A stretch of DNA of 27,979 bases from an uncultured Vicinamibacteraceae bacterium (GTDB lineage Bacteria > Acidobacteriota > Vicinamibacteria > Vicinamibacterales > UBA8438), in assembly GCA_964634925.1 (NCBI GenBank), contig CAZWKO010000001.1:1-27979 (forward strand), in the 5' to 3' direction. Both the position numbers and the translations under genes were made by a program. The notes under the pieces were generated by a model. That model had not been told where the DNA came from and made no database searches. It worked only from the letters and a program-made list of their open reading frames with translations. Within the stretch, counting starts at the first letter, position 1; every line of letters starts with the position of its first letter. Of the stretch, positions 1 through 27,850 are shown one piece after another.

Positions 1-887
1 TTGTCAGCAATCCACACATCGTAGCCAGTAGCGTAGATGTCGTTCGGAAATTCAAATCCCGGCCATGTCGCGATTGGTGAAATATTGGGGTGATACCACA
101 CAGACCGCGTCGTTTCATTAAACACCTGAATTCGATCATTGTTGCGGTCAGCCACATAAATGCGCCCGATACTATCCGTTGCTACGGCGTGCACCGCATC
201 GAACTCGCCTCGACCACTACCCTGAGTCCCCCAGGTCGTCACAAAATTGCCTTCCGCGTCAAACTTCACAACACGAGCATTTTCAGAGTCAGCAACAAAG
301 ATCGAGCCATCTTCGAGAAATGCAAGATCTTGTGGACGATTGAAATGGTTCTCATCATCCCCAACTCCACCGGCACCGAGAGACATTACTAATTCTTCAC
401 CGTCGTTTGAGAACGCATGGACTTGATGATTAGTTTCATCAACAACCCATACCTTCCGGTCAGGGTCAAAGGGACTGATCTTCACCTTGTGCGGGCCGGC
501 TCCCCCTTCAAACATCTCATCCCACTTGGTCCAAGCCTCAATCATGTTGCCACCACCATCAACCACATAGATGGAATTCCGCCAGACACGATTGTCACCT
601 GCTTGCAAGGCGTTCTGGCCAATCGATCCAACAAACCCCTGAAACCCAGGCGGCACGGGATCCGGTAATCGAATTTCGCCACGCTGGATAACAAAAATAC
701 GGTCGGGTGATTCCGCAAAGACACCGGTCGTCGCCCCAAAGGCATGGCCAGACGGGGCAAACGGCTTGACCCACGCATCAACCACATCGTACGGACTTGC
801 TCCGGCCGACATATCCTGCATCACTGCGGGAGCAGCCGTTAAACCAGAGGCGACAACTGCCGTCAAAATCAAATAATAATTTCGCAT
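1..887 (-). CDS. Exported NHL-repeat (PAL-like six-bladed) beta-propeller protein, paralogue A; partial, C-terminal end lies outside the window
   Basis: Hand translation from ATG 887 is open to the window edge (295 codons): MRNYYLILTAVVASGLTAAPAVMQDMSAGASPYDVV...GPHKVKISPFDP...FNRPQDLAFLEDGSIFVADSENARVVKFD...DAVHAVATDSIGRIYVADRNNDRIQVFNETTRSVWYHPNISP...YDVWIAD. It is collinear with the adjacent ORF 915..2087. The ORF track omits it because no stop codon lies in the window. Confidence 0.9.
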   Translation of the reverse strand, partial: MRNYYLILTAVVASGLTAAPAVMQDMSAGASPYDVVDAWVKPFAPSGHAFGATTGVFAESPDRIFVIQRGEIRLPDPVPPGFQGFVGSIGQNALQAGDNRVWRNSIYVVDGGGNMIEAWTKWDEMFEGGAGPHKVKISPFDPDRKVWVVDETNHQVHAFSNDGEELVMSLGAGGVGDDENHFNRPQDLAFLEDGSIFVADSENARVVKFDAEGNFVTTWGTQGSGRGEFDAVHAVATDSIGRIYVADRNNDRIQVFNETTRSVWYHPNISPIATWPGFEFPNDIYATGYDVWIAD

Positions 888-914
888 AGTTCCATCATCC
901 TTTAACTTTGAGCG

Positions 915-2087
915 CTATTGCAACGGTGGGTCCGGTGCACCAAACGTCTCCATGAAGCTCGCCCCTTCTTTCTGGACAAACTTTTGCACTCGACCGTGAC
1001 CAGGATCCGCGACATAGAAATTTTTCTCTGCATCTACAGAAAATTGGTGGACAACGAGCGCCTCACCAGCACCCGTGCCAAAACCGGCAAGTTCCCACGT
1101 AAATTGAGGATTGCCGTTCCAGTCAAGCTTCACCATCCGTGCGGGCCGTGTGGGTTCGCCAGCACCACCTGCAGCAGAGCCTTCACCGTTATCCGAAATC
1201 CAAACATCGTAGCCAGTGGCATAAATATCGGTCGGCCGTTCAAATCCCGGCCACGTCGCGATCGGCGAAATGTTTGGGTGGTACCAGACGGAGCGCGTTG
1301 TTTCATTAAAAACCTGGACTCTGTTGTTTCCCATATCGCCTACGTAAATCCGACCGATGCTGTCGGTCGCAAGGGCGTGAGGTCTATCAAACTCGCCGCG
1401 CCCACTTCCGTTCACACCCCACGTCGTCACAAAATTTCCTTGGGCATCGAACTTCATAATGCGCGAGTTGCCCATATCAGAGACAAAGATAGAGCCGTCC
1501 TCGGTAAATGCCATATCCCAAGGTCGATCAAAATGATTGTCGTCATCTCCCGCACCACCAGCACCGAGTGACATCACAAGCTCTTCACCATCATTTGAAA
1601 AGGCGTGCACTTGATGATTCGTCGTATCGGCCACCCAGAGTTTCCGGTCAGGATCATAGGGGCTGATCTTGATCTTATGTATACCGGAAGCACCCTCTGC
1701 ATCAGTCTCGAACATGTCATCCCACTGTGTCCATGCTTCGGTCATGTTTCCGTCAGCATCGACAACGAAGATGGTGTTCTGCCAAACGCGACTCTCGGCA
1801 GCAGTGTTGGCCCTCACGCCAATCGACCCGAGGAATCCTTCAAAACCTGGGGGGACAGGATCTGGCAATCGATTCTCACCACGCTGGGCAATGAAAATGC
1901 GATCAGGCGACTCAGCAAACACACTTGATGTCGCTCCGAATGAATGCCCAGTCGATGCAAACGGCTTCAGCCAACCATTTACCACATCGTATGGACTCGC
2001 TCCAACGGACATATCCTGCATCACCGCAGGAGTAGCTAGTAACCCAGCCGAGACAATTACTGTAAAAATCAAGAAAGCTCTACGCAT
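915..2087 (-). CDS. Exported NHL-repeat (PAL-like) beta-propeller protein, paralogue B
   Basis: 390 aa. Hydrophobic N-terminal signal. NHL blades FDRPWDMAFTEDGSIFVSDMGNSRIMKF, FDRPHALATDSIGRIYVGDMGNNRVQVF and VHQFSVDAEKNFYVADPGHGRVQKF. SD-like TAAGGA upstream. Confidence 0.9.
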   Translation of the reverse strand: MRRAFLIFTVIVSAGLLATPAVMQDMSVGASPYDVVNGWLKPFASTGHSFGATSSVFAESPDRIFIAQRGENRLPDPVPPGFEGFLGSIGVRANTAAESRVWQNTIFVVDADGNMTEAWTQWDDMFETDAEGASGIHKIKISPYDPDRKLWVADTTNHQVHAFSNDGEELVMSLGAGGAGDDDNHFDRPWDMAFTEDGSIFVSDMGNSRIMKFDAQGNFVTTWGVNGSGRGEFDRPHALATDSIGRIYVGDMGNNRVQVFNETTRSVWYHPNISPIATWPGFERPTDIYATGYDVWISDNGEGSAAGGAGEPTRPARMVKLDWNGNPQFTWELAGFGTGAGEALVVHQFSVDAEKNFYVADPGHGRVQKFVQKEGASFMETFGAPDPPLQ

Positions 2088-2130
2088 GGTTTATTCGTCC
2101 TTATATTGTTCTTGCGAACCTCACCTTAAA

Positions 2131-2154
2131 TGGTTGACACCCCAAAGTCAGCCA
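2131..2154. promoter_or_regulatory. Imperfect dyad TGGTTGAC-N8-GTCAGCCA overlapping a perfect -35 hexamer TTGACA (2134-2139) in the divergent NHL/MBL intergenic region
   Basis: The arms match 7/8 as an inverted repeat. No good -10 lies at 17-nt spacing, so function is uncertain. Confidence 0.25.
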
Positions 2155-4855: not shown

Positions 4856-4866
4856 TTGTTCCGTCT

Positions 4867-5355
4867 TTATTCTAAAGTATCCGACTTTAATCGATACTCT
4901 CCGGTGGTCGGGTCTTGCTCTCGATATACAGCATGACAGGACGCACACGCCGCTTGAATGTCTGCAGCAACCTCCGCCGCCGCCATTGAATCCACTAGCT
5001 CCATCGATAGGACCGCATCGAGATCATCCATGCCCCGCAGCGCAGCACGCACATACCCAGTCGCGTCGTCTTTTTCATGGTCACGCCAGAACGTCACCGT
5101 CGTCGCTAACTGTTCACGTGATCGGCTGAGACGTTCTTTTGTGGTTGCGTAATCAGCAGCAGCAAGCGTTTGCATCGTGGCCGTAAAGTTCGGACCGAGC
5201 GTTTCCATTGTTGCCGCAAGATGATCAGTTGTATAAATCGGATACGGCCTTTGAGCCAACGCAACAATACCGACCATTCCCAAGATCGTCACTATCGAAC
5301 CGCACAGTTTTCCCAGATGACGCGTAATTCGGACCGAAATCTTTTTGTTAGACAT
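4867..5355 (-). CDS. Periplasmic class II cytochrome c (cytochrome c'/c-556-like four-helix bundle)
   Basis: Signal peptide ending ALA|Q, ~128-aa Ala-rich helical mature chain, single C-terminal CASCH. ATG 5355 overlaps the DUF1552 stop by 8 nt (162 aa). Confidence 0.75.
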   Translation of the reverse strand: MSNKKISVRITRHLGKLCGSIVTILGMVGIVALAQRPYPIYTTDHLAATMETLGPNFTATMQTLAAADYATTKERLSRSREQLATTVTFWRDHEKDDATGYVRAALRGMDDLDAVLSMELVDSMAAAEVAADIQAACASCHAVYREQDPTTGEYRLKSDTLE

Positions 5356-6700
5356 CAGTAAGACGCTCAAGGTGGCCGTTACTATCTCCAAATGAATCAA
5401 CCGGGACACCGAGTTTGTCGAGAATCGTCATGTAGAGATTCGCCAGTGGGGTGTCGTCAGCATACCGAACATAGCGCCCACCTTGAATGCCAGTCGCCTT
5501 GCCACCCACCAAGGCAATTGGAAGATCATCGTGGAAATGCGTATTGCTATCACTGATCCCAGTACCATAAAGAAACAGCGTCGAATCCAACATTGTCCCA
5601 TCGGCCTCAGGTAAGGCCGCTAATTTTTCAACCAGGTAAGCGAACTGCTGGAAATGATATCCGTTAATCTTGTGCAACCGTTCAAGCTTGGCGGGCTCAT
5701 CCTGATGATGCGAAAGAGGATGATGAGAATCAGACACTCCAATCTCCGGGTATGCACGCCCACTGACCTCTCGAGCCAACATAAAAGAACTGATCCGGGT
5801 TAAATCTGTCTGATAGGCCAATGCCAGAAGATCCATCATCAATTTAGCGTGCTCTGCATAATCGCTCGGCACCCCGACAGGCTGATCAACAACCGGAAGC
5901 TCGCGCGTACTTTGCTGCTCGGCCATTTGAATACGGCGTTCAATATCACGTAGCGCGTCTAGGTACTCGTCAAGCTTGATTTGATCACCAGGACCAAGAA
6001 TAAGTTCCAGACCTTCTAATTCACCGCCGACCGCGTCAAGAATGGAACGGTCTCGGCGTAATCGTTCCATCCTGGCCTCGGGATCTGTACTACCGGTAGT
6101 CCCAAACAGTCGCTCAAAGACAGCTCGGGGGTCGTTCTCAATCGGCAGTGGTGTCGTTGGTGTCCGCCATGCGATGGTGTTGGTGTAGGCGCAACTTGCA
6201 CCACCGTCACAGTTGCCAACCATGGCATTGGATTCAATCCCTAGTTCAAGAGACGCCAGTTGCGTCTCCTTTGACAACTCACGAGCTGCTATTTGGTCCA
6301 TCGAGACGGCCGCAAAGACATCCGCGCCACTTGTAATCTTGAAGGGAACACACGTCAGAAAAGTCCCCGCCGACCTCGCATGGTCTCCACCGCCCTTAAC
6401 CAAGTTAGCTGATTCGTCATCGAGCCCACCACACAGCAGCACGCGATCCTTAAACGCACTTAACGACTGCAACGTCGGCGGCAATGCAGCAAGCGGTCCT
6501 TCTTTTTGTGGAAACCAGTACGGCATCGACATCCCATTTGGCACATAAAAAACGCCGAAGCGACGCACCGGAGCAGCTGCCGTGCGACGTTGCGCCGTCA
6601 ATGCGGGAACCATGCCATCAAGCAGCGGCAACGCAATGGCAGCACCGAGACCACGCAGAACCGTTCGCCGAGGTAAATATTTCTTTGTAATGAACATCAT
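5348..6700 (-). CDS. DUF1552 (HXXSHH family) protein, copy 1, twin-arginine-type signal
   Basis: LPRRTVLRGLG leader, YVPNGM, GGDHAR, CDGGASCAYTNTIAW, PRAVFERLFG, SHHPLSHH and LPIALVGG. ATG 6700 is 1 nt after the DUF1592 stop (450 aa). Confidence 0.9.
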   Translation of the reverse strand: MMFITKKYLPRRTVLRGLGAAIALPLLDGMVPALTAQRRTAAAPVRRFGVFYVPNGMSMPYWFPQKEGPLAALPPTLQSLSAFKDRVLLCGGLDDESANLVKGGGDHARSAGTFLTCVPFKITSGADVFAAVSMDQIAARELSKETQLASLELGIESNAMVGNCDGGASCAYTNTIAWRTPTTPLPIENDPRAVFERLFGTTGSTDPEARMERLRRDRSILDAVGGELEGLELILGPGDQIKLDEYLDALRDIERRIQMAEQQSTRELPVVDQPVGVPSDYAEHAKLMMDLLALAYQTDLTRISSFMLAREVSGRAYPEIGVSDSHHPLSHHQDEPAKLERLHKINGYHFQQFAYLVEKLAALPEADGTMLDSTLFLYGTGISDSNTHFHDDLPIALVGGKATGIQGGRYVRYADDTPLANLYMTILDKLGVPVDSFGDSNGHLERLTDV

Positions 6701-6701: not shown

Positions 6702-9110
6702 CTAGTCCTCAATGGCGCGCGCCTCTATATCATCCGGGGCACGACGTTTTTGAAAAGGCTCGCTGGTAACCACAGCCGCGATGAGTGAAGACCATCGGTA
6801 GTCGTTGTCTTTGAGAATGCGTGTTATACGACGGACCGTCGGCGCGTCATAGTACGCGACACCTCGACCCAACGCATAGGTTAGTAACTTTTCGGTCACG
6901 GTACGAACAAACTCATTATCACCGTCGGAGAGCAACGCCTCGCGAAAGGCCCGCGGGTGATCTATGACGGCATCTGACAACGTAATGGTCGCATTAATCT
7001 CCGCACCCCCGTCAGTCTCGCGCCATCGACCAATAGCATCGAAATGCTCCATCGCAAATCCCAATGGATCCATCCGTCGATGGCAACTTGCGCAAACTGG
7101 ACTACTCCGATGCTGTTCCATCCGTTCACGGAGCGACGACGGGTTCCGCCTATCGTTTTCCGCCAGTGGCGGCACATTCGGAGGCGGTGGCGGTGGCGGT
7201 GACCCCAGAAGCGTCTCAAGTACCCACTTGCCACGGAGTACCACTGATGTTCGGTTTGCGTATGACGTCACCGTGAGCACACTCGCGTGTCCGAGTAACC
7301 CGTGGCGCCGATCATCAGTCCATGCTGTCCGTCTGAACCGATTACCGTAGATCCCGGTTACGCCATAATGATCGGCGAGCTGCTCATTCAAAAACGTATA
7401 GTCCGCACGCAGCAATTCATCAATCGGGCGATCTTCGCGCACCTGACTTTCAAAGAAGAGTTCTGTCTCCCGGACCATCGCATTCCGTAGAGAATCGTTA
7501 AATCCAGCAAACAATGCGCCATCGGGGTCTTGAGAGTGTATGTTCCGAACCTGAAGCCATTGCCCAACAAAGTCATCCATGAAACGGGTCGCTCGACGGT
7601 CAGCAAGCATCCGGCGCACCTGACCAGCTAGTACATCAGGCTGACTCAGTTCATCACCAACCGCGAGTTCTAACAATTCTTCATCTGGGATACTTTTCCA
7701 GAGAAAAAAAGAAAGTCGTGATGCGAGTTCGATGTCACTTAGCTGGTAGATAGAACCGGGCTGTGTATCAACGGGCTGCCGCTCAAGACGTAGAAGAAAC
7801 TTTGGCATCGACAGCAGCGCTTCAAGTGCACGCTCTATACCCACCTCAAAGTCACGATCCAACCGTCCCTCCCGATAGACAACCATTAGCGGCTCAATAT
7901 CGTCATCGGTCACGGGTCTGCGATACGCACGACGGGTAAGGGCTCCCATGATCTCTCGTGCGCAGGCCTCCTCCTCCACGAGACTACTACTAGCCACCGG
8001 ATGGCAGCTAAATATACGTCGACGGCTCGGCGTGTCATCTGGGACCACACCATTGAACGGTCCAGAAATATAGACCGTGTCAATGCCTGGTTGATCGCTC
8101 GGCACACCCGGTGAGGGCGCTGAATCCGTAAAAGCAACTGACACGAGTCGTGTGCCCGCTTGAATCGGAACACGCACCTCCAACTCGTGGTCGGCTGTCA
8201 TCCGATATTCGTGCAGTCGTTGTCCATCGACATCCTCTTCCGGAACTGCTATGAGCTGACCCGGGTCCGGGCCAGGATACTTTCCTCCGATCAAGAAACG
8301 TTGAACAAGTGCATGATCGACCCGTACTTCAATTTGGTGTTCGTCTTCAGCAATTCCGTCGATCGTTTCAATCGTTTCATTTCGTTTCAAACGAACCGCA
8401 AACACATATTCACCATCCAAAGGAAACGTATGCCGAATCGCTAATCCCCCGTGGGTCGCGAATGGCATCGTTTCACCAGCTCGAAGATCGCGTCTCTCAT
8501 ACCCAACGTCGTAAACCTGCATGACCGGTCGGTTGTCACGACTCCCGACCGCGGCTCGACTAATCTTTGTTGCAGTCGCAATATAACGAGCCATTAATGA
8601 CGGTGTGATCGAAAGCACGTCAGCATTGTTATCGAATCCAAAACCGGCCATATCTCCCGGAAGCAGTGCACTCCCGTCGATTTCAAGTGCTAACAAATCG
8701 TAAATGGCGTTGACGTACTCAAGACGATTGAGGCGACGGGACGCCACTCGTCCGGGGTTAGGCCTCGTTGCTGCCGCACGGTCAAGCGCATTTTCTAGGG
8801 AGAACGTAAACTCGCCGATCGTCGCCGCGTCCGGCCGCGGACGTCCTTCCGGAGGCATTTGACCACTTCGAAGTTTCCGCACGACCTTTTCGAGAATTTC
8901 GGCATTGCCACCAACGTCTGCAAGGTCGAGACGGTCAAGTGAGAGGCCAGCAGTCTGCAGCCGGTCGTTGTGGCAAGTAATACAGTAATTTGTAAAAATT
9001 TCGCTGGAAATCGCTTCGGTGCGTTCCTGAGCCCAGGAGACCTGGAGCACCAAAAGAGACGCCAGCCCAACAAATCCACTGGCACCGAGTGTCAGCTTCA
9101 GCTTCAGCAT
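6702..9110 (-). CDS. DUF1592/DUF1587/DUF1588/DUF1595/DUF1585 (PSD-family) diheme cytochrome c, copy 1
   Basis: 802 aa. Signal ending SWA|Q. N-terminal heme CITCH...GQMPP. Also RRLNRLEYVNAIYDL, GFDN, RRAYRRP, ELASRLSFFLW, LRGKWVL..PPPPPPP, second heme CASCH and KLLTYALGR. Confidence 0.92.
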   Translation of the reverse strand: MLKLKLTLGASGFVGLASLLVLQVSWAQERTEAISSEIFTNYCITCHNDRLQTAGLSLDRLDLADVGGNAEILEKVVRKLRSGQMPPEGRPRPDAATIGEFTFSLENALDRAAATRPNPGRVASRRLNRLEYVNAIYDLLALEIDGSALLPGDMAGFGFDNNADVLSITPSLMARYIATATKISRAAVGSRDNRPVMQVYDVGYERRDLRAGETMPFATHGGLAIRHTFPLDGEYVFAVRLKRNETIETIDGIAEDEHQIEVRVDHALVQRFLIGGKYPGPDPGQLIAVPEEDVDGQRLHEYRMTADHELEVRVPIQAGTRLVSVAFTDSAPSPGVPSDQPGIDTVYISGPFNGVVPDDTPSRRRIFSCHPVASSSLVEEEACAREIMGALTRRAYRRPVTDDDIEPLMVVYREGRLDRDFEVGIERALEALLSMPKFLLRLERQPVDTQPGSIYQLSDIELASRLSFFLWKSIPDEELLELAVGDELSQPDVLAGQVRRMLADRRATRFMDDFVGQWLQVRNIHSQDPDGALFAGFNDSLRNAMVRETELFFESQVREDRPIDELLRADYTFLNEQLADHYGVTGIYGNRFRRTAWTDDRRHGLLGHASVLTVTSYANRTSVVLRGKWVLETLLGSPPPPPPPNVPPLAENDRRNPSSLRERMEQHRSSPVCASCHRRMDPLGFAMEHFDAIGRWRETDGGAEINATITLSDAVIDHPRAFREALLSDGDNEFVRTVTEKLLTYALGRGVAYYDAPTVRRITRILKDNDYRWSSLIAAVVTSEPFQKRRAPDDIEARAIED

Positions 9111-14453: not shown

Positions 14454-15590
14454 CTACTCGTGTGCTTCGATTAGTTCGTATGCGAGTCCATTCGGGTCTT
14501 CGATCAAGATCGCTCGTGTCTCGCCGAGGGTATACGGACCCTCAAGAATTGGTACGCTCTTAGCCTCAAGGTGGGCAATGACATCATCGAGGTCTGGATA
14601 CGTCAAACCAATGTGATCGACGACTTGCCCACGTGATCGAACTAGCGATCGATCAAGACCGGCACCGCAGCGACCGTCTCGACACTGCCGCGGATACCAC
14701 AACCAGCTCGCATTGCCGACTCGAGCATTTCCAGCCGGAATTCGAAGTTGCCCCACCTCCATGTAGGTCGGAAACGTGACCTCTCCAGTTGGGACCTCGC
14801 ATGGACTCCACCCGTTCTCACTAAAGTTAAAATCCGAGCTGAACGTGTTCTGATTCTCAGGAAACTTCGCACCAAGGTGCTCCACGTGCCAGTTGGCCGC
14901 ACACAGTGGATGCTCCGCCCAGAAATGTGTGTGACTACGAAAGCTGTCATTCTGGCCGGCCGTGACCTCCACCAACATCCCGTCCGGGTCCACGAGATAC
15001 GCGAAATCGAGACCCGAGGTTGGAGGAGTAGGTGGATCAGCAGCCTCCTCCTCGGCGCGTTCGGCAATACTGCTCGCGCGCAGCAAGGCATCCCCCATAG
15101 GTAGTGCAAGTGCATGGTGCGCCGTGTCGCCGCCATCGGACCCACCGTATAAGGTCACAAACTCGAACGCTTCCTGGTCAAAATCACGGATGCGTTCACG
15201 AAATGCGTCGGTGTTGGGTCCAGCAAACGTCGACCCAAAGGTCCAAAATCCACTCTGAGGCTCTGAACGCTGTAACGCTCGGTCAAACCCACCGGGGGGT
15301 TGCGTATCGACCTGCGTATACAACAGGTAAATGTCATCGTAGAAAGCCGGAAACCCTGCGTAGGTTGTGGCCTCTCCCTGTGGCCAGTAATCGCTGTACC
15401 AGGCGATCGAACGGTCCGGATCGACAGAGTTGATATGAATATGGTGAAACGTGGGTGGTGGAAGCGCAACCACCACGTCCTCAGACGCCACGGTCGCTCC
15501 CTCTTCGGCAAACTCAGGAAGCCCGCATGCGGCAGTCAAAACTGTCGCGGCGATCACACTTCTCACGGAAACAACCAACGTTTTCCTCAT
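14454..15590 (-). CDS. VOC (glyoxalase/bleomycin-resistance/dioxygenase superfamily) multi-module protein, probable lipoprotein
   Basis: FHHIHIN, FAYLVDPDGMLVEV, HTHFW, VDHIGL and ILIEDPNGLAYELIE. N-terminus MRK...VLTAA|C with a lipobox-like Cys (378 aa from ATG 15590). Confidence 0.8.
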   Translation of the reverse strand: MRKTLVVSVRSVIAATVLTAACGLPEFAEEGATVASEDVVVALPPPTFHHIHINSVDPDRSIAWYSDYWPQGEATTYAGFPAFYDDIYLLYTQVDTQPPGGFDRALQRSEPQSGFWTFGSTFAGPNTDAFRERIRDFDQEAFEFVTLYGGSDGGDTAHHALALPMGDALLRASSIAERAEEEAADPPTPPTSGLDFAYLVDPDGMLVEVTAGQNDSFRSHTHFWAEHPLCAANWHVEHLGAKFPENQNTFSSDFNFSENGWSPCEVPTGEVTFPTYMEVGQLRIPAGNARVGNASWLWYPRQCRDGRCGAGLDRSLVRSRGQVVDHIGLTYPDLDDVIAHLEAKSVPILEGPYTLGETRAILIEDPNGLAYELIEAHE

Positions 15591-17736: not shown

Positions 17737-19299
17737 TCACTGGTCAGCAGCAAGTCGACGTAGTAGTTCCATCGTGCTTTCGTGCGGTCCGGCATTCGCC
17801 CCACGCCCAAAACCTTGCCGCGCGAAATCAAATGGGGTCAATCCCCCTTCGTTCATCACCGCTAGATCAGCGCCCTGGACAACCAAGTACTCAACGACGG
17901 TGTCATACCCTCGACGCGCCGCTGCGTGAAGCGCGGTGTTGCCATCGGTATCCGCCGCATTAAGGTCTACGCCAAGCTCAACCGCCAGCGTGACCGCGGC
18001 AAGTGTCGTGGTCTCGACCTTGTCCCAATCAGGATCGCGCCGAGTGCTTCGGACCGGTGCGCTCTCGGCAATGCGTCCGAGCCGATCGACGGCAATGAGT
18101 GGCGCACGCCCGCCGAGCCCAACCGCTGCCATTAACGCGGTCGTGGGACCTTCCTCAATCATCCGACGATCTTCGGTAACCCCGAGAGATCCCGGCCAGT
18201 AACTTGGAGAATGCTGCGCATGTGGGTCAGCACCGAGTTCAGCGAGCTGATACATGATGTCCGGCGCACCGAAACGGGCCGCAAGCCAAAACGGCGTCGC
18301 TCCTACATAGGAAGGATGCAGATAAAAATCAACAGCATCCCGGCGAACAGGGGTAGCCCGTTCAACCGTCACGTTGGGGTCAGCGCCATGCGCAAGTAGC
18401 GTACGGACAAGGTCGTTGTCTTTATGCAGGATAGCAGCATGTAACGCGGTATAACCGGCCTCGGCTGCATCTGGGTCCGCCCCGCGTTCAACAAGATAGG
18501 ACGCCACCTCTCCATGCCCACTATGGGCCGCGACAACGACAGCACTCGTACCCACCGGCGCGAGATCATTAACATCAGCCCCAGCCTCAACCAGTAATCG
18601 GGCAGACGCGAGATCACCAACGCGTGCCGCAAATAGCAACGGCGTGTAGCCACCCTGCTGCTGCTCAGTCACATACTCAGGGCTCCATGGGTCCGGTGAT
18701 GTCTTGACCACCTCAGTCCACGACACCGTCCGAGTATCAACATCCGCCCCATACTCAAGCAACACTTCGACAACCGCGGCGTGGCGCTGCGCCGCAGCCC
18801 ACATGAGTGCGGTTTGACCACGCGCAGCAGTCACTTCAGTTCCGGCACCGGCTTCAAGAAGATGACGTACAACAGCAGCGTCACCACTCCGTGCTGCAGT
18901 CATCAATACCGTCTCGCCTGACAGAAGAGCCACATTCGGGTCGGCACCCGCGGCTAGCAGTTGGCGCACTATTACCAGACTACTGTTCTCAGCCGCACTC
19001 CAGAGTGGTGTCACACCGAGGTCGGTCGCCGCATTCACATCGGCCCCTGCAGCAATCAAGCGAGCGGCAATATTAACCTGGTCCCAGTGCACGGCCCAGT
19101 GGAGCGCGGTTGAACCATCTCCCTGGGAGATTGTGACGTCAACACCACCGTCCAGTGATACTTGAACACTCACCCAATCGGCATTACGAGCAGCATCCGC
19201 CACGGTCGGCTCAGCACGCTCAGCAGCAAATACGCTGACAGCGCCCAAGATTACGGCCGCGACGATCCATACACTCTGGAGTAAACGAGTCATTAGCAT
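17737..19299 (-). CDS. Exported ankyrin-repeat protein 2
   Basis: DGSTALHWAVHW, GETVLMTAARSGD, GQTALMWAAAQ, GYTPLLFAARVGD and DGNTALHAAARRG. Signal ending VFA|A. The start overlaps the DUF1552 stop (TGATG). Confidence 0.9.
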   Translation of the reverse strand: MLMTRLLQSVWIVAAVILGAVSVFAAERAEPTVADAARNADWVSVQVSLDGGVDVTISQGDGSTALHWAVHWDQVNIAARLIAAGADVNAATDLGVTPLWSAAENSSLVIVRQLLAAGADPNVALLSGETVLMTAARSGDAAVVRHLLEAGAGTEVTAARGQTALMWAAAQRHAAVVEVLLEYGADVDTRTVSWTEVVKTSPDPWSPEYVTEQQQGGYTPLLFAARVGDLASARLLVEAGADVNDLAPVGTSAVVVAAHSGHGEVASYLVERGADPDAAEAGYTALHAAILHKDNDLVRTLLAHGADPNVTVERATPVRRDAVDFYLHPSYVGATPFWLAARFGAPDIMYQLAELGADPHAQHSPSYWPGSLGVTEDRRMIEEGPTTALMAAVGLGGRAPLIAVDRLGRIAESAPVRSTRRDPDWDKVETTTLAAVTLAVELGVDLNAADTDGNTALHAAARRGYDTVVEYLVVQGADLAVMNEGGLTPFDFARQGFGRGANAGPHESTMELLRRLAADQ

Positions 19300-20636
19300 C
19301 ACACCTCAGACAACGTATCGATGGGAAGCCTATTTGTGCTCTCACCCAATCGTTCAAGAGGCATGTCGAGCTTGTCCATCAGGGTCATCAGCAAGTCAGC
19401 ATTCGACGTATCAGCGGGAAACCTGAGGTGCCGTCCCCCTTTGATCTTTCCTGCGCCCCCACCAAGAACAAGAAGCGGAAGATTCGTACCTGAGTGACTG
19501 GTACTGTTCGAGATGCCGGCCCCGTACAAGATGGTCATGTGGTCGAGCATCGTACCGTCACCGTCCTGCGCAGCGCGCAATCTATCCAGATACCCTGCTG
19601 TCAGCTCAACATGATAGGTATTGATCTTCGACATTAACGCCACACGGGCAGGGATGTTTTCATGGTGCGATAGAGGATGGTGAGCATCAGGAACCCCCAC
19701 TTGTGGAAACGGGCGTGTGCTTTGCTCCCTACCCATCATGAACGTCACCACACGCGTTAAGTCAGCTTGCAGGGCAAGAAACTGGAGGTCAAACATCAGT
19801 TGTAGATGTTCTTCAAATACCCGCGGCGGCCCAGACGGCTGCTCTGTAAACGACGGCTCAATGTCACGTTGTGCCTCAGCCAGTGCGATGCGCCTCTCAA
19901 CATCTCGGACGGCTTCGGTATATTCGTCGAGCCTCGCCCGATCACTCGTTCCAACCGCAATCTTAAGATCCGTTAATTTGTCGGTCACCGAGTCGAGAAT
20001 GCTTTGCTTCTCCTGGCGACGCTCTCGCCGGACCGCCGGATCAGCCGACCCACTATCCCCAAACAATCGCTCAAAAACAGCCCGCGGATTATTTTCCATC
20101 GGCAGAGGCGTGGTCGGCGTTCGCCAGGAGATCGTCTGCGTATAGGCACAACTCAAACCAGCCGTACACTGTCCAGCATTGGCGAACTTGTCTATTGCCA
20201 CCTCGAGCGAACCGAGTTGCGTCGTTTTCCCAAGTTCCCGAGCGAGGATCTGGTCCATTGACGTACTCGCAAGAACATCGGTCTCGTTTTCACCACCGCG
20301 CGGCGTTCCCGTAAGAAACGAGGCGGAAGCCCCAGCGTGCACGTAGTTCCATGACGATCGAAGTCCAGAAATGACGAGCAATTGGTCCCTGAACCGATCG
20401 AGCGGTGCAAGAATCGGACTTAGGTCAAAACGAGTTCCGACGACCTCCGGGGTCCAATAGGGCATTGCCATGCCGTTCGGCACATAGACCGCCTGGAAGC
20501 GATGGATCGGCTTTGCCGCTGTCTTCGCGAGCGCTGTCACAGCCGGCACCATCGCATCGAGTAGCGGAAGCCCCATTGTCACACCAAGACCTCGGAGGAC
20601 AGTGCGACGTGGAAGTGATTTCTTAGTGATTGTCAT
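19299..20636 (-). CDS. DUF1552 (HXXSHH family) protein, copy 2, twin-arginine-type signal
   Basis: LPRRTVLRGLG, YVPNGM, VHAG, CTAGLSCAYTQTISW, PRAVFERLFG and AHHPLSHH. ATG 20636 (445 aa) is 10 nt after the DUF1592 stop. Confidence 0.9.
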   Translation of the reverse strand: MTITKKSLPRRTVLRGLGVTMGLPLLDAMVPAVTALAKTAAKPIHRFQAVYVPNGMAMPYWTPEVVGTRFDLSPILAPLDRFRDQLLVISGLRSSWNYVHAGASASFLTGTPRGGENETDVLASTSMDQILARELGKTTQLGSLEVAIDKFANAGQCTAGLSCAYTQTISWRTPTTPLPMENNPRAVFERLFGDSGSADPAVRRERRQEKQSILDSVTDKLTDLKIAVGTSDRARLDEYTEAVRDVERRIALAEAQRDIEPSFTEQPSGPPRVFEEHLQLMFDLQFLALQADLTRVVTFMMGREQSTRPFPQVGVPDAHHPLSHHENIPARVALMSKINTYHVELTAGYLDRLRAAQDGDGTMLDHMTILYGAGISNSTSHSGTNLPLLVLGGGAGKIKGGRHLRFPADTSNADLLMTLMDKLDMPLERLGESTNRLPIDTLSEV

Positions 20637-20646: not shown

Positions 20647-23115
20647 TCAGTTCGCAGAAACAAGCGCGGCGTTGCGAGTCAAAAAGGCTGGACTCTTTAC
20701 AATTCCCAAAACGAGCGACGACCAACGATAGTCATCGACTGCCGCATCCTGCACAATCGCACGAACAGTTGGCTTATCGTAATACCCAAGCGCACGGCCC
20801 AAGGCATACGACAAAAGTTTTTCTGTCACCGTTGCGGCAAACTGCTCTGGCTGTTGAAGCAAAAGTGTGCGCAGTCCGGTCATCCCCTGCACCTCAACTC
20901 CATTTGGCATCGTGGCAGTGGCGTCGATTGGGTTTCCAAATTCATCAACATCACGCCAGGCCCCAAGACCATCAAAATTTTCAAGCGCAAACCCAGGCGG
21001 ATCGATCGTGGCATGACAAGCGGCACACGCTGGCGCCTGGCGGTGACGCTCAAGGCGGTCACGTACCGATGTCGTGTTTCCACCCTCTCCCCGTTCAGGC
21101 AATGGCGGTACATCAGCGGGTGGTGTTGGCGCCGGAGCCCCAAAGATCGTATCAAGCAGCCACTTTCCTCGCAGCACCGGCGATGTCCGAGTTGGGTAGG
21201 ATGAAATAGCTAACAATCCTCCATGCCCAAGTAGGCCGCCACGTTGTTCACGGTCCGGTACTGTCACTTTCCTGAAACGACTGCCATAGATTCCCTGAAT
21301 ACCGTAATGTCGTGCGAGACGCTCGTTGACGAACGTGTAATCCGCATCAAGTAGTTCAAGAATACTTCGATCCTCGTTAAGGGTACTCGACAAGAAACGA
21401 GTCGTTTCTTGATAGAACGCATCGACCAGATTGTCGTCAAAATCCGGGAACGGCACGGGGTCACCTTTCACATCTTCCAAGTTGCGAAGATGGAGCCATT
21501 GGACGGCAAAATCATCAACTAGCGATCGGGACCTCGAATCGTTAAGCATCCGATGGACTTGTACTTCGAGCTGACCAGGATCAGTCAGATTGCCCTGTTC
21601 CGCAATGTCCAACAACAGATCGTCTGGCAAACTGCCCCAAAGAAAGAATGAGAGTCGAGACGCAACCTCCATGTCGCTCAGTTGATAAGCACGTTCGGGG
21701 CCAACCGAGTCAGGATCTCGTTCTATACGAAGCAGAAAATCTGGGTCAACTAGTAAACGCTCAAGGGCAAGTTGAATGCCTCGGTCAAAGCTACCGCCAT
21801 TCTCACGGCCACGATCAAAAAAACCAAGGAGCGTCGACAGATCGTCTTCGTTCACGGGACGACGATACGCTCGCCGCGCCAACCGCGACAGTATTGCTGT
21901 CGCGCAGTCTCGCTCCGCACTGACCGTCGTCGGTTGGCAGCTAAAAATAGCCATACGGCTCGCGGTCTGGCCGACGCCACCCGAAGCGTATGGGCCAGCA
22001 ATGGAAACCGAACTCACGGCGGCATTCCCATGATATGCCTCATCATTTGACAGCACCTCACCCACTTGATGCGGCTTGAGGATGCCCTCCGGCTCCCAGA
22101 GATCACGAACAAACGACACGCCCACAACGCGTGAGCCGGCTGCAACGGGAATACGCACTTCAAGGTCTTGGTCGGCATTGAGGACATATGCTTCCCACTC
22201 CGGCGCCCCCTTCTCTGCGATGGTAAAGGTCACTGGCGCGGCCCTAGCCGTTGTTCCGCCACCCACGGTAAAACGTTTCACGAGCACACCATCGATACGA
22301 ACGTCAAGTAACTGTTCGGTGCCCATCCCGAGAATGTAGTCCTGCCAGTTTGTTCGAAGATCTATCTTGAAGAGGTATTCACCGTCAACCGGGAAGTGGT
22401 ACTGGATGGCATGTCCACCACGTGAGCCCAGCGGCAGGTGTTCACTTTGGCGGTCGTCCTGTACGAGTAACAAAGGAACGTCAAAGGTCTCAAACTGCGG
22501 CGCGAGTGGAGCCACCCCAACCGCTAAACGAGAAATACGACGAGCAGCCGATAAGTATCGCTCAAGCTGAGACGTCGTCATCGACAATACATCCGCGTTG
22601 TTATCGAAACCAGTATCAGAAGTCTCATCACCTGGCAGCAGTAAATCGACCTCGATATCAACCGCGAGCAGATCCCGGATAGCATTCCGATACTCCGTGC
22701 GATTTAGTCGGTGTGTTGTACTCGTCCGACCTGGGTTCGGACTTAACGCAGCTGCCTGATCAATTGACGCTTCAAGCCGACTGGCTACGGCATGGTAGGT
22801 CTCAACATCAGGACGTGGGCGACCCGCCGGTGGCATTGCACCACTTCGTAACTTCAAAATGATCCGCTCCCACACATCGGCATCATCGCTGGGATTACGG
22901 CCGTCCAAACGATCGAATGACAGGCCGGCAGTTTGAATGCGATCGTTGTGACAGGATGAGCAATAGCGTTCTATCAACTCCTGCGGACCAGTGACCTCTT
23001 CAGATGCCTGTGCCCACACGGGGGATTGCGTGGCACAAACGAGCAGGAAAGTCGTACTCACCTGTAATTTCCCACCACATAAAACACCGTGTAGCTGTCG
23101 TATCAACTTTCTCAT
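20647..23115 (-). CDS. DUF1592/PSD-family diheme cytochrome c, copy 2
   Basis: 822 aa. CSSCH...GAMPP, HRLNRTEYRNAIRDL, GFDN, RRAYRRP, EVASRLSFFLW, RTSPVLRGKW, CAACH and KLLSYALGR. Signal ending VWA|Q. Confidence 0.92.
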   Translation of the reverse strand: MRKLIRQLHGVLCGGKLQVSTTFLLVCATQSPVWAQASEEVTGPQELIERYCSSCHNDRIQTAGLSFDRLDGRNPSDDADVWERIILKLRSGAMPPAGRPRPDVETYHAVASRLEASIDQAAALSPNPGRTSTTHRLNRTEYRNAIRDLLAVDIEVDLLLPGDETSDTGFDNNADVLSMTTSQLERYLSAARRISRLAVGVAPLAPQFETFDVPLLLVQDDRQSEHLPLGSRGGHAIQYHFPVDGEYLFKIDLRTNWQDYILGMGTEQLLDVRIDGVLVKRFTVGGGTTARAAPVTFTIAEKGAPEWEAYVLNADQDLEVRIPVAAGSRVVGVSFVRDLWEPEGILKPHQVGEVLSNDEAYHGNAAVSSVSIAGPYASGGVGQTASRMAIFSCQPTTVSAERDCATAILSRLARRAYRRPVNEDDLSTLLGFFDRGRENGGSFDRGIQLALERLLVDPDFLLRIERDPDSVGPERAYQLSDMEVASRLSFFLWGSLPDDLLLDIAEQGNLTDPGQLEVQVHRMLNDSRSRSLVDDFAVQWLHLRNLEDVKGDPVPFPDFDDNLVDAFYQETTRFLSSTLNEDRSILELLDADYTFVNERLARHYGIQGIYGSRFRKVTVPDREQRGGLLGHGGLLAISSYPTRTSPVLRGKWLLDTIFGAPAPTPPADVPPLPERGEGGNTTSVRDRLERHRQAPACAACHATIDPPGFALENFDGLGAWRDVDEFGNPIDATATMPNGVEVQGMTGLRTLLLQQPEQFAATVTEKLLSYALGRALGYYDKPTVRAIVQDAAVDDYRWSSLVLGIVKSPAFLTRNAALVSAN

Positions 23116-23232: not shown

Positions 23233-25317
23233 CTATTTGGCCAGCGGATCAGGGCGTATTTGGAATTTCACAGACTTTTGGAGCGTGCCAGGGCCTCCCT
23301 CCAAGTGCCATGCCGCATAATTCGAGTAGCTAGACCAAAGCCCCTTTCCCTTCCATCCTGCACTTGGGTCATCAATACGCCCAACCGAGGACCGGGAAAA
23401 GAATCCCATCGGGTACGGCACTCGCAATGTGACAAATTCCTGAGTCTCTGGGACGAAGACCTCTAGCGAATCAGTATTCACCACTCCGTACACAGGTGTT
23501 TCAGGTCCTAAACCCAACACGTCATGGTGGTCGATCTGCGTCAGGTAACTCTCATCAGAATTAATCGGCGTCTCCGCATTTGCATAGGTAGGCTTGTCCA
23601 TCCGGTAGAACGACCAACCTTCCGGACAGCTTTGGCCTGTCGCTTCAGGACCATTTGTGACTGTGCATACACTTCGGTCAAAGGACGCGAAATGGCCACT
23701 ACCCCGCCAATCCTGCCAAACAAGTCCGTCACTCGTAATGTGCAAACCTCCACTGCCATACGGAGATGGATTTTGAATACTCGGAGGAGGCATATAGACC
23801 TCTGCGATACATGACTCTGGTGGATTGTCTCCAAGCTGGAGACGCATCAAGGTATTGTCATCGCGGCCGTTATCAGAACACCACACGGTACCGTCAGCCT
23901 TGTTGTAGGCGGGCGAGTAACATCCATAGGCGATTCGATGATCTAGTGCTGGATCAACTGACTCATCCGGTTCAGTCCATCCTTGAGAAATCACCCCATC
24001 ACCATTCGTATCCAGAACGGTTGGACACCAACCCTGTGCTGCCTCCGCGTCTTGGGTTTCCTCCCAAATCTCAACATCTATCCACCCGACACCGTCTCTA
24101 AATCCGTAATAGAACCGTTCGTCCTCACCAAGTTGATTGTGATCGGCTGAAAAACACGTGTCGATTTCGCTAAATTCTTCCGTTTCAGGGTCATACTTAA
24201 ATGCCTGTCTCGTACCACGTTCAATTGGAAAATAATCTGCGAACGCGTTCCCAGCATCAGTACAATAGATTGGCTGTTCGTCTGCGCCACGCACCCGTCC
24301 CGTCAGCCAAACTTTTCCCGCACCATCCATCGCGACGCTTCTCGGGTCAGATCGTCTCGCCCAAATCGGCTCGTCACCATAGTACGGAGAAGTCGGCGTC
24401 TCGGACAGAATAGGTGGAGCGTCCGATGGAATCGTGATGTTCGTCGCTCGATGCTCAACCGGATCCAAAACCGCGAGAATATCGCTCGGCTGCACAACCC
24501 CATAAATAAGACCATTTGCGTTCACTGTCGCGTCACGTACATCCGACGGCGTACTGTCTGTTCGACCATCCGTTTCAGTTCCCCAATCCCACAACGTTAC
24601 AACGATGTTTCTCTCGATCCCCATCGGTCGAGGAGGTATCTGTGTCGGTCCTTCACCCGATGCAATCCGATCCGTCCAATCCGCAAACATTTCTCGCTGC
24701 GGTCCGAGTCGACGATACATACCATTCATACCGGCACCCATCGGGCCCATCTGGACACGCTGGTCCCATGCATCAAAATGTGAATCAGATTCGCGCAGAA
24801 TCCCAGGAAGAATTTCGCGAGTGGCCTTATTCCCGACCTGATGGCAATTCATGCAGCCAGTTACCGAACTTCCGAGTTCCTGATGTGACAGGTCACCCTC
24901 CGGAAGCTCCATCATCGACAACCACCAAGCTGCGGGATACACCTGTGCCGCCGCGACTGCATCAGGCGCTACCACGGCATCAAGATTCAACATCTGTCCT
25001 GGCGTCCCAGCAACTCGGTCAGAATCGACAAGTCCATAACCGCGCACGAACACCTGGTACGTCGCCTCAGGCAAATCCGGAAGCACATACTGTCCGTCAT
25101 CATCAGTCGAAACAATCCGTATAAAGCGAGTCGGCAGGTCCGTTGTCTCAGCAATAACCCAGACACCCGCTTCCAGACCAGCCGCACTTGTAACAACGCC
25201 ACCGATGTCATCGGCATCGATCTGAAGCCCAGTCTGACTATCGTCTGCAGGAGCACAACTCGCCATTGCAAGAACCGCCACTGCGCCGATTAGTTTCGAT
25301 GTGACCCGTCCACTCAT
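23233..25317 (-). CDS. Lipoprotein with carboxypeptidase-regulatory-like N-domain, monoheme cytochrome c motif and Cys-rich C-terminal (propeller-like) domain
   Basis: Lipobox MAS|C. IGGVVTSAAGLEAGVWVIAET...TDDDGQYVLPDLP..YQVFVRGYGLVDS, then CMNCH, DTNGDG and C-terminal FQIRPDPLAK. GAGGAGG SD before ATG 25317 (694 aa). Confidence 0.8.
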   Translation of the reverse strand: MSGRVTSKLIGAVAVLAMASCAPADDSQTGLQIDADDIGGVVTSAAGLEAGVWVIAETTDLPTRFIRIVSTDDDGQYVLPDLPEATYQVFVRGYGLVDSDRVAGTPGQMLNLDAVVAPDAVAAAQVYPAAWWLSMMELPEGDLSHQELGSSVTGCMNCHQVGNKATREILPGILRESDSHFDAWDQRVQMGPMGAGMNGMYRRLGPQREMFADWTDRIASGEGPTQIPPRPMGIERNIVVTLWDWGTETDGRTDSTPSDVRDATVNANGLIYGVVQPSDILAVLDPVEHRATNITIPSDAPPILSETPTSPYYGDEPIWARRSDPRSVAMDGAGKVWLTGRVRGADEQPIYCTDAGNAFADYFPIERGTRQAFKYDPETEEFSEIDTCFSADHNQLGEDERFYYGFRDGVGWIDVEIWEETQDAEAAQGWCPTVLDTNGDGVISQGWTEPDESVDPALDHRIAYGCYSPAYNKADGTVWCSDNGRDDNTLMRLQLGDNPPESCIAEVYMPPPSIQNPSPYGSGGLHITSDGLVWQDWRGSGHFASFDRSVCTVTNGPEATGQSCPEGWSFYRMDKPTYANAETPINSDESYLTQIDHHDVLGLGPETPVYGVVNTDSLEVFVPETQEFVTLRVPYPMGFFSRSSVGRIDDPSAGWKGKGLWSSYSNYAAWHLEGGPGTLQKSVKFQIRPDPLAK

Positions 25318-25539: not shown

Positions 25540-26883
25540 ATGCGGACTCGTGAAACACTCAGCTTCTATATAGGCGGAATCTTCCTTTTACAAATGCTGA
25601 TTCTGCCGAGTAGTGCGGTTGGCCAACACTGGCCACAGTTCCGTGGCCCTGATGCAAGTGGCGTCGTCGCAGACAACCAAGAACTTCCCGAAACCTGGTC
25701 TCGCTCGAACAACGTGGCTTGGAGGACCGAAATCCCTGGCCTTGGATGGAGTTCGCCGGTCATTACGAATGACCTCATTGTGTTCACAACCGTCGTGAGT
25801 GATGGGGACGTGGAATTTCCAGAGGGCGGTTGGTATGGCGGAGGCGAACGAGACGTACCAGGAGACATCCACCACTGGGTCGTTTACGCGCTCGATCTGG
25901 AAACCGGCAGCACTCGTTGGACGACAGAAATCCATGCTGGCGTACCCGAGTCATCACATCATGTAAAAAATACCTTTGCCTCAGAAACGCCGGTGACAGA
26001 CGGCGAACGGTTGTATGTGACTTTTGGCAATGTCGGGATCTACGCGCTCGACTTATCAGGCACGGTCCTCTGGTCGCGTGACTTACCAGCATTACAAACA
26101 CGAAACGGCTGGGGAACAGCTGGGTCTCCGGTCATCCATGATGGCCGACTTTACATGGTTGTGGATAATGAGGAACAGTCATACATTGCCGCGCTGAGCA
26201 GCGAAACCGGCGCAGAGGTATGGCGCACCGACCGAGACGAAGGCTCAAATTGGGCCACTCCATACATTTGGGAGCACGAGCAACGGACAGAGATCGTCAC
26301 CCTCGGTACCGATAAGGTCCGTTCCTACGACCTCGACGGCAACCTACTTTGGGAATTGTCTGGTATGTCGTCAATCGTGATTCCAACTCCTATCACCGCA
26401 CACGGCTTGCTTTACATAGAGTCAGGGTACATTGGAGATTTTTTCAGACCGGTCTATGCAATCCGTCCCGGAGCATCAGGCGACATTTCTCTTGCTGATG
26501 GCACCTCTTCAAATAACTACGTTGCGTGGTCACTTGACCAAGGTGGCTCCTATCACCCATCGCCACTGGTGTACGGTGATTATTACTACACACTCCTCGA
26601 TCGCGGCATGTTGACGGCCCACAACGCACGTACTGGAGAAGAAATCTATGGCCGACAGCGGATCACGGTCGGAGAAGGGTTTACAGCATCTCCATGGGCC
26701 TACAACGGAAAGATTTTTGCATTAAGCGAACGTGGGACGACCTACGTGATTGAGGCAGGACCTGAATTTCAAGTGATCGGAGAAAATGAACTCGACGAGT
26801 TTACGATGGCCACGCCGGCCGTCCTTAACGACAGCCTCATTATTCGAACAAGTGAGGCGGTCTACCGTATCGCCAATCAATAA
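25540..26883 (+). CDS. Exported PQQ-binding-like (PQQ_2/BamB-like) beta-propeller repeat protein
   Basis: 447 aa. HWPQFRGP, VAWRTEIPGLGWSSPV, ASETPVTDG, GTAGSPV, repeated G..LW docking motifs and FTASP. Signal ending AVG|Q. GGGAG SD. It lacks the HHxLWDYD dehydrogenase motif. Confidence 0.85.
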   Translation: MRTRETLSFYIGGIFLLQMLILPSSAVGQHWPQFRGPDASGVVADNQELPETWSRSNNVAWRTEIPGLGWSSPVITNDLIVFTTVVSDGDVEFPEGGWYGGGERDVPGDIHHWVVYALDLETGSTRWTTEIHAGVPESSHHVKNTFASETPVTDGERLYVTFGNVGIYALDLSGTVLWSRDLPALQTRNGWGTAGSPVIHDGRLYMVVDNEEQSYIAALSSETGAEVWRTDRDEGSNWATPYIWEHEQRTEIVTLGTDKVRSYDLDGNLLWELSGMSSIVIPTPITAHGLLYIESGYIGDFFRPVYAIRPGASGDISLADGTSSNNYVAWSLDQGGSYHPSPLVYGDYYYTLLDRGMLTAHNARTGEEIYGRQRITVGEGFTASPWAYNGKIFALSERGTTYVIEAGPEFQVIGENELDEFTMATPAVLNDSLIIRTSEAVYRIANQ

Positions 26884-26884
26884 A

Positions 26885-27850
26885 TTAGGAACGTGAAAAG
26901 ATCAGGATCTCGTCAGCAACAGCAACAAATATCAGTTCGTCATTGACCGCCATGGCACCGGCAAATGTTCCTACGTTGTGACTCGCGACTCGGACCGGCT
27001 GTATTGGGTCTGATAGATCAAAAACCTCCAGGGCTGCCTCACTGAGAACAAACACTTCCTGCTCGCGAAGAACAACACCTCTTGGTTGGCCACTAGTTGG
27101 AACTTGGGCCGTAATTGTGGGAACAGTCGGGTCCGACACATCCACAACTTGCAGACCGTCACGTCCACTCGCGACACAGATGACTGTAGGAACCGCCAGA
27201 CCTGGGAGCCATTGCGGAACGAAAACACGAGAGCGAGTACCGCCGAGCGGTAGTTGGCCAATGGGCTCTGGGCTTTCGGGTGTCGTGATATCGAAAACGA
27301 TCAATCCTTCCGGCTGATCAACGAGGTAAACAAAATTACCCGCCGCGGCAATACTGCGAGGAAAACCAATCGCTAAATACTCCCCGACTCGCGCGACGTC
27401 ATTAATGACGCGCACAACATCAAACCCAACAGAATTGTCTGCCACGAATGCATGAGGCCCAATAACGGCAATCGCATTCGCCTGTCCACGGGTGGGCGAA
27501 CCCCCGCTGACAACCGGCACAAACGGATTTGACACATCAAGTCTTTGAAATCCTTCATGCCCATTCGCGACATAGACCGCATCTCGGTTCATAGCCAAAC
27601 CAAGGATGTTGTCAGCAAACTCATACTGACTAATGACCGCCGGAACCTCGGGGTCTGAAATATCGAAAATTGTGAGCTTCTGGGCATCAGCCACCGCCAG
27701 TCGCGTGTCCTGCGCAACCATCTGCGTGGCACCAGCGTGAATCGTCCCACGCGACACAAACTCTGAATCTTGCGCAAAACCTGTGTTGGCCAACCCCAAT
27801 GTAACCGCCGTAAGCCAAACCACGGTAAGAACATGGACAGGAAGACGCAT
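26885..27850 (-). CDS. Exported LVIVD-repeat beta-propeller protein
   Basis: Repeats LTIFDISDP, FQRLDVSNP, LIVFDITTP, LQVVDVSDP and LEVFDLSDP. Signal ending GFA|Q from ATG 27850 (321 aa). Confidence 0.85.
   Translation of the reverse strand: MRLPVHVLTVVWLTAVTLGLANTGFAQDSEFVSRGTIHAGATQMVAQDTRLAVADAQKLTIFDISDPEVPAVISQYEFADNILGLAMNRDAVYVANGHEGFQRLDVSNPFVPVVSGGSPTRGQANAIAVIGPHAFVADNSVGFDVVRVINDVARVGEYLAIGFPRSIAAAGNFVYLVDQPEGLIVFDITTPESPEPIGQLPLGGTRSRVFVPQWLPGLAVPTVICVASGRDGLQVVDVSDPTVPTITAQVPTSGQPRGVVLREQEVFVLSEAALEVFDLSDPIQPVRVASHNVGTFAGAMAVNDELIFVAVADEILIFSRS

Follow-up and report, generated by a model that had tools for sequence, protein, structure and literature searches.

The Q-rule, under which exported proteins carry glutamine (Gln) directly after the signal peptidase I site (position +1), was defined by Bochtler et al. 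(2018), who analyzed Bacteroidetes, Chlorobi, Spirochaetes, Chlamydiae and Cyanobacteria (PMC5837995). By SignalP/LipoP, 332 of 334 Bacteroidetes species lay above 48% Gln at +1, with a Bacteroidetes mean of 71%; outliers beyond that phylum were reported 'with no obvious pattern', namely Ignavibacterium album (77%), Chloroherpeton thalassium (55%) and a few cyanobacteria (40-67%) (PMC5837995). Szczesniak et al. (2023) described the rule as present 'exclusively in the Bacteroidetes phylum' and these bacteria as 'unique among procaryotes', and the Gln-first pattern of Porphyromonas gingivalis was experimentally shown to depend on glutaminyl cyclase (PMC10653852). Two types of this enzyme are distinguished: the plant and bacterial β-propeller enzyme (type I) and the animal, M28-like enzyme (type II) (PMC7948796). 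The Q-rule literature on signal peptides that we found concerned Bacteroidetes or their phages throughout, and full-text searches for Acidobacteria or Acidobacteriota with glutaminyl cyclase, or with pyroglutamate and signal peptide, returned nothing. Here we describe the Gln-first exported proteins encoded in a stretch of 27,979 bases (the window), the first part of a 37.9-kb contig (C1) of an uncultured Vicinamibacterales bacterium, together with the signal peptides and the glutaminyl cyclase of its whole genome (G000). We put the probability at roughly 80% that a genome-wide Q-rule operates in this host and that a type I cyclase caps its exported proteins. The mechanism, in which signal peptidase I exposes Gln and a periplasmic cyclase caps it, is known; the host lineage, with its type I enzyme, is new.

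The genome is metagenome-assembled (2.9 Mb, 445 contigs, 84% complete, 51% GC) and was searched with our own pipeline. Genes were called with a self-trained codon-usage caller seeded on GC3, which replaced a first caller that had given 2-4 signal peptides per 100 kb in relatives of 67-73% GC. A signal peptide was called where a start codon was followed by an N-region of positive charge and a hydrophobic segment, and the cleavage site was placed with a -3/-1 weight matrix and a mild position penalty; lipoboxes and proteins with additional membrane helices were dropped. The identity of the +1 residue never entered the scoring. Among 2,632 called genes, 589 encoded candidate signal peptidase I substrates, and Gln was found at +1 in 263 of them by hard call (45%; binomial p 5e-215), with Ala as the runner-up at 7%. 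Stricter subsets gave 56%, 58% and 63%, the strictest being 91/145, and a maximum-likelihood estimate that treats the cleavage site as hidden (EM) gave 0.59. The enrichment was confined to a single position: Gln made up 0-7.6% of residues from -8 to -1, 44.7% at +1, 10.5% at +2 and 4-7% from +3 to +8. As Gln accounts for 3.5% of residues overall, the +1 rate was approximately 13-17 times background. We also computed a statistic based on the first polar residue after the hydrophobic core, which separated genomes poorly and was kept as a side check only.

The same scripts were applied to two controls. In 250 kb of a Chondrinema litorale plasmid (Bacteroidota, Cytophagales), Gln occupied +1 in 17 of 36 predicted sites (47%; EM 0.61), and in 250 kb of Escherichia coli K-12, which has no cyclase, in 0 of 29. 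The E. coli result indicated that the pipeline creates no Gln, and the Bacteroidota value of 47%, compared with the published 71%, that it underestimates a true Q-rule organism. By this yardstick, the secretome of the present genome is as Gln-rich as that of a Bacteroidota member, roughly half or more of its exported proteins are predicted to be Gln-first once the signal peptide is removed, and the true +1 rate is probably around 60-70%.

These figures bear on whether home-made gene calling and site prediction could have produced the signal artificially. The predictor is indeed crude: it called signal peptides in 22% of genes, which is too many, and it misplaced sites in Ala-rich, high-GC genomes, where leaders were often cut as AQA/ instead of A/QA (a slash marks the cleavage site), so that high-GC values are lower bounds. 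Such errors, however, dilute the signal rather than create it. The peak was restricted to a position that was never scored, internal AXA-like sites within proteins were followed by Gln in 3.2% of cases, and identical settings separated the two controls. We therefore consider an artefact very improbable; the +1 Gln bias is real and genome-wide.

The window shows the same pattern in individual genes. It encodes 16 proteins with N-terminal export signals; upon re-reading the N-termini, we assigned 14 as predicted signal peptidase I substrates and two as lipoproteins. In 10 of the 14, a basic N-region and a hydrophobic core were followed by a canonical site (small residues at -3 and -1) with a CAA or CAG Gln codon at +1. 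At a background of 3.5%, the probability of at least 10 Gln among 14 is 2e-12. The 16 features are as follows.

5251-5355, minus strand: class II-like cytochrome c; 34-residue signal peptide ending VALA; Gln codon CAA at 5251-5253; ALA/Q; site score 4.8.
6590-6697, minus strand: DUF1552-1; twin-arginine (PRRTVLRG) leader ending ALTA; Gln codon at 6590-6592; LTA/Q; placed by eye, as the predictor did not list this weakly hydrophobic twin-arginine (Tat) leader.
9027-9110, minus strand: DUF1592-1; 27-residue signal peptide ending VSWA; Gln codon at 9027-9029; SWA/Q.
9221-9313, plus strand: exported ankyrin-1; 30-residue signal peptide ending SAHA; Gln codon at 9311-9313; AHA/Q.
10881-10955, plus strand: PQQ dehydrogenase 1; 24-residue signal peptide ending TAHA; Gln codon at 10953-10955; AHA/Q.
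14215-14292, minus strand: serine hydrolase; 25-residue signal peptide ending TLVG; Gln codon at 14215-14217; LVG/Q; weaker site with Gly at -1, score 0.9.
17619-17714, minus strand: PQQ dehydrogenase 2; 31-residue signal peptide ending GVVA; Gln codon at 17619-17621; VVA/Q.
23008-23115, minus strand: DUF1592-2; 35-residue signal peptide ending PVWA; Gln codon at 23008-23010; VWA/Q; placed by eye.
25540-25626, plus strand: PQQ-like propeller; 28-residue signal peptide ending SAVG; Gln codon at 25624-25626; AVG/Q.
27770-27850, minus strand: LVIVD-repeat protein; 26-residue signal peptide ending TGFA; Gln codon at 27770-27772; GFA/Q.
816-887, minus strand: NHL-A; ambiguous, either AVM/Q (Met at -1) or AGA/S seven residues downstream.
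2016-2087, minus strand: NHL-B; ambiguous, either AVM/Q (Met at -1) or VGA/S seven residues downstream.
19222-19293, minus strand: exported ankyrin-2; exception, SVFA/A.
20523-20636, minus strand: DUF1552-2; exception, Tat-type leader ending TALA/K.
15525-15590, minus strand: lipoprotein (LTAA/C); signal peptidase II substrate, outside the Q-rule.
25255-25317, minus strand: lipoprotein (AMAS/C); signal peptidase II substrate, outside the Q-rule.

The first-pass annotation, made from the letters of the window, had counted 12 Gln-first proteins among the 14. Ten of these stand, each with a canonical site. The two NHL proteins, whose AVM/Q sites that annotation had itself marked as less certain, were counted as ambiguous because the downstream AGA/S and VGA/S sites score better by the -3/-1 rule. 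Its two exceptions, ankyrin-2 and DUF1552-2, read the same in our hands.

To place the host, we compared an RpoB fragment of 294 residues, which showed 88-89% identity to three metagenome-assembled genomes named Vicinamibacterales bacterium and 69-78% identity to further such genomes named as Acidobacteriota lineages. Outside the phylum, one match labelled Clostridia reached 72% and the remaining ones were at or below 68%. Because the RpoB contigs are small and somewhat different in GC from the window, a window protein was tested in addition. Two complete genomes from the GTDB family of the host encode orthologues of PQQ dehydrogenase 2 with 81% and 79% identity, whereas further matches reach approximately 50% at best, and the +1 Gln is retained in both orthologues (GASA/Q and AVSA/Q). 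On these comparisons, the host is a member of Vicinamibacterales and not of Bacteroidota. Within the order, its low GC and small size (51% and about 2.9 Mb at 84% completeness) are unusual; relatives of the same family or order (G043, G070, G106 and G206) have 67-73% GC and 3.9-6.5 Mb. The soluble PQQ dehydrogenase family is strongly expanded. At least nine matches were found in the present genome (window positions 10881-12989 and 15630-17714, and contigs C14, C17, C28, C39, C58 and C92) and 9-10 in each same-family genome; of the 120 other Acidobacteriota genomes searched, 96 had no match at E <= 1e-60.

A bin of 445 contigs with 3.7% estimated contamination and a broad GC spread could in principle have received its Gln-first genes from wrongly binned Bacteroidota contigs. 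The Gln rate was lower on contigs below 50% GC (20/73) than on those at or above 52% GC (153/314); the low-GC contigs may include islands or contaminants, or may yield more false signal-peptide calls. Gln-first sites were nevertheless spread over 152 of 266 contigs with any signal peptide, and contigs with four or more of them had a median Gln fraction of 0.5. The same +1 Gln in the two same-family PQQ dehydrogenase orthologues, and the same bias in three named Vicinamibacterales genomes (see below), point to the host itself. Mis-binning is thus no explanation for the Gln signal, and we regard it as the most improbable of the alternatives. The checks proposed in the first-pass annotation on the genome-wide +1 Gln rate, on a Bacteroidetes origin and on a cyclase gene (described next) all came out in favour of its interpretation, namely an Acidobacteriota-like organism that may cap its secretome with pyroglutamate; we regard this interpretation as supported.

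The genome contains one Glu_cyclase_2 (PF05096) gene (G000:C4, about 19175-19975; L001:1420-2220:+), which scored 286.9 bits against a cut-off of 22.3. Its product was similar to the solved type I cyclases 3mbr (E 1.7e-51), 3nol (1.2e-49), 3nok (1.8e-44) and 2faw (1.1e-40) over approximately 220 residues, which is the whole catalytic domain. In the alignment to the papaya enzyme (2faw), E69, N155, K225 and F67 were kept, as were the FGEG, LNELE and TGKLWP motifs; E69 is the proton shuttle and N155 and K225 are the oxyanion residues in papaya numbering (PMC5837995). Position 24 is Gln, as in papaya; this variant is reported to be more active than the one with Glu found in Xanthomonas (PMC5837995). 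Papaya W169 is replaced by Tyr. The N-terminus of the cyclase consists of a basic stretch followed by approximately 26 hydrophobic residues and lacks both a lipobox and a good cleavage site. From this sequence, we infer an uncleaved signal anchor that would place the propeller in the periplasm. Signal peptidase I (TIGR02227) was also found (G000:C26:5043-5570; 175 bits against a cut-off of 47), along with a partial second copy. The gene directly upstream of the cyclase (L001:397-1308:+, G000:C4) encodes an exported protein that, judged by eye, is endonuclease/exonuclease/phosphatase-like; its signal peptide ends VARA/E, and the product is not Gln-first.

The first-pass annotation had proposed a search for both cyclase types with the labels reversed, as M28-like type I and propeller type II; by the established naming (PMC7948796), what we found is the β-propeller type, and the M28-like type was not found. 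In this 84% complete genome, there was no match at E <= 1e-25 to a type II cyclase of Acidoferrales. Its own M28 peptidases were considered as type II candidates and rejected on size and family, since the five strongest are LapA-like aminopeptidases of 460-608 residues; the weaker M28 matches include M20-type peptidases. The five LapA-like proteins lie on contigs C236, C23, C5, C133 and C109 (L006-L010) and have export signals, mostly signal peptides; one contains a PDZ domain, and some are Gln-first (VVA/QQ). A periplasm rich in aminopeptidases would be in keeping with the proposal that capping is protective.

Taken together, these features suggest the following scheme. The majority of proteins that signal peptidase I cleaves after Sec or Tat export would be built to expose an N-terminal Gln upon cleavage. 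The single cyclase, predicted to be a five-bladed β-propeller and tethered by its putative N-terminal anchor to the inner membrane on the periplasmic side, would convert the exposed Gln to pyroglutamate, and by analogy with P. gingivalis the pyroglutamate may shield the exported proteins from aminopeptidases. Judged from sequence, pyroglutamate capping very probably works in this acidobacterium too.

To determine whether Gln bias and cyclase occur together in relatives, we took 66-200 kb apiece from 16 additional Acidobacteriota genomes and from two outgroup genomes. The results are listed below as type of cyclase, Gln at +1 by hard call and, where computed, the EM estimate and the polar share, defined as the fraction of AXA-like sites with a polar +1 residue in which that residue is Gln.

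G070, Vicinamibacterales: type I; 6/20; EM 0.49; polar share 0.52.
G106, Vicinamibacterales: type I; 13/29; EM 0.56; polar share 0.57.
G206, Vicinamibacterales: type I; 12/33; EM 0.45; polar share 0.59.
G209, Acidobacteriaceae: both types; 12/30; EM 0.53; polar share 0.60.
G210, Acidoferrales: type II only; 12/25; EM 0.54; polar share 0.58.
G205, Solibacteraceae: type I; 8/45; EM 0.31; polar share 0.42.
G130: type I; 5/31; EM 0.20; polar share 0.40.
G170: type II; 4/18; EM 0.32; polar share 0.32.
G211: no cyclase found; 3/31.
G004: no cyclase found; 1/12.
G001: no cyclase found; 1/10.
G012: no cyclase found; 0/6.
G006: no cyclase found; 1/14.
G010: no cyclase found; 0/10.
G058, same class as the host: no cyclase found; 4/12.
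G189, same order as the host: no cyclase found; 4/11.
Cystobacter fuscus, outgroup: type I; 2/22.
Pannonibacter, outgroup: no cyclase found; 6/24.

The three Vicinamibacterales relatives showed 30-45% Gln by hard call and 0.45-0.56 by EM, and the Acidobacteriaceae genome showed 40% and 0.53, while six of the eight Acidobacteriota samples in which no cyclase was found had 0-10%, five of them lying close to background. Pooled over the Acidobacteriota relatives, Gln occupied +1 in 72 of 231 sites (31%) with a cyclase and in 14 of 106 (13%) where none was found. Per genome, cyclase-bearing and cyclase-free samples differed with a Mann-Whitney p of 0.016. Related genomes are not independent, few sites were sampled in each, and rates at high GC come out too low; we read the association as a trend and not as proof. 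The Acidoferrales genome (G210) lacks PF05096 and instead encodes a predicted lipoprotein of 333 residues with an M28 fold (VAPG/C; G210:C8, L222:1132-2133:+), whose best solved relatives are the bacterial and animal type II cyclases 7d18 (E 3e-62), PgQC 6qql and TfQC 6qro.

Several observations weigh against a simple coupling of bias and capping. A cyclase alone is clearly not sufficient, as Cystobacter has a type I enzyme and only 2 Gln-first sites in 22, and the type I-only relative G130 reached only 5/31 by hard call, a value to be read as a lower bound. Conversely, moderate bias was present where no cyclase was found (G058, G189 and Pannonibacter), so that in these small samples the enzyme is not clearly necessary. 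On the contig of the present cyclase itself, Gln stood at +1 in only 1 of 7 predicted sites. All of these cleavage sites are predictions of a -3/-1 matrix cruder than SignalP, and N-terminal Gln is known to cyclise spontaneously as well (PMC5837995). G058 and G189 are 99-100% complete; type I matches were absent from both, and their M28 matches were weak ones only (E about 1e-9). Their bias may point to some different sort of cyclase or to Gln cyclising spontaneously, or it may be noise from the few sites sampled. In Pannonibacter phragmitetus (G203, Alphaproteobacteria), Gln stood at +1 in 6 of the 24 predicted sites, with a polar share of 0.41. Intermediate bias may be common in some Proteobacteria, in which case the trait would be graded rather than all-or-none.

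The imperfect co-occurrence and the spontaneous reaction leave room for a reading in which the bias is real and has nothing to do with enzymatic capping: it would reflect a substrate preference of the signal peptidase I of this lineage or some different selective pressure on mature N-termini, pyroglutamate would arise spontaneously if at all, and the substrates of the cyclase would be few and special. We consider this reading unlikely, although less so than an artefact or mis-binning. All five genomes with a hard-call Gln rate of at least 40% carry a cyclase of one type or the other, and so do two genomes within 30-36%, a range in which none was found in G058 (33%) and G189 (36%) with 11-12 sites each. 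The Acidoferrales genome that lacks type I has the other, unrelated type, dependence on the cyclase was experimentally shown in P. gingivalis (PMC10653852), and the exceptions come from samples of 11-24 sites. A genome-wide Q-rule with capping by the type I cyclase is thus the reading that we retain.

We also compared the distribution of both enzymes across 200 evenly drawn Acidobacteriota genomes, each at least 85% complete. A strong type I match was present in 57 and a type II-like match (E <= 1e-25 to the Acidoferrales enzyme) in 72, the latter count including a genome flagged as unpublished (G048), while no other claim made here depends on G048, G023 or G146; 28 genomes had type I only, 43 type II-like only, 29 both and 100 neither. 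The family of the host had type I only in 3 of 3 genomes, and its order had at least one type in 12 of 13. Among the sampled genomes, Gln-first secretomes occurred in cyclase-bearing Vicinamibacterales, Acidobacteriaceae and Acidoferrales and mostly not in cyclase-free ones. We lean, with some reserve, towards the view that the Q-rule is a recurrent lineage-level trait that is tied to a periplasmic cyclase of either unrelated type and is not a speciality of Bacteroidetes. If so, proteome-wide N-terminal capping would have been gained or lost repeatedly within one phylum.

In a cell that follows it, the Q-rule alters the N-terminal chemistry of most exported proteins, and for Porphyromonas the cyclase is essential. 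That Acidobacteriota show this pattern equally strongly, with a plant-type cyclase in one lineage and an animal-type cyclase in another, suggests that the trait is broader than published and was probably gained or lost more than once. Cyclase-bearing and cyclase-free relatives offer a natural comparison for why cells cap their secretome. The pattern is also relevant to signal-peptide predictors, to N-terminal proteomics, where N-termini would be blocked, and to the heterologous expression of acidobacterial enzymes.

Compared with the Q-rule of Bacteroidetes, the present system was similar in its majority-type Gln enrichment right after signal peptidase I sites across the genome, in the inclusion of a Tat-type leader and exclusion of lipoproteins, and in a membrane-associated glutaminyl cyclase, here predicted to be periplasmic. 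The match to the Bacteroidota control was close (45% and 47% by hard call; 0.59 and 0.61 by EM). It differed in that the host is an acidobacterium outside the FCB group, in that an uncleaved hydrophobic segment, and not a lipid anchor, appears to attach the cyclase to the membrane, and in that pyroglutamate is predicted here from sequence. The cyclase resembled the solved type I enzymes of Xanthomonas campestris (3mbr), Zymomonas mobilis (3nol), Myxococcus xanthus (3nok) and Carica papaya (2faw) over its full length and shared the five papaya residues E69, N155, K225, F67 and Gln24, with Tyr in place of W169 as the difference. Unlike those enzymes, it occurs in a genome with a mostly Gln-first secretome, whereas Cystobacter, which has such an enzyme, showed no Q-rule in our sample. 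Like the outliers of Bochtler et al. (2018), the present genome indicates that Bacteroidetes are not strictly the only bacteria with the bias; in contrast to them, it belongs to a phylum outside that analysis, in which the bias is common to several related genomes and goes with either cyclase type.

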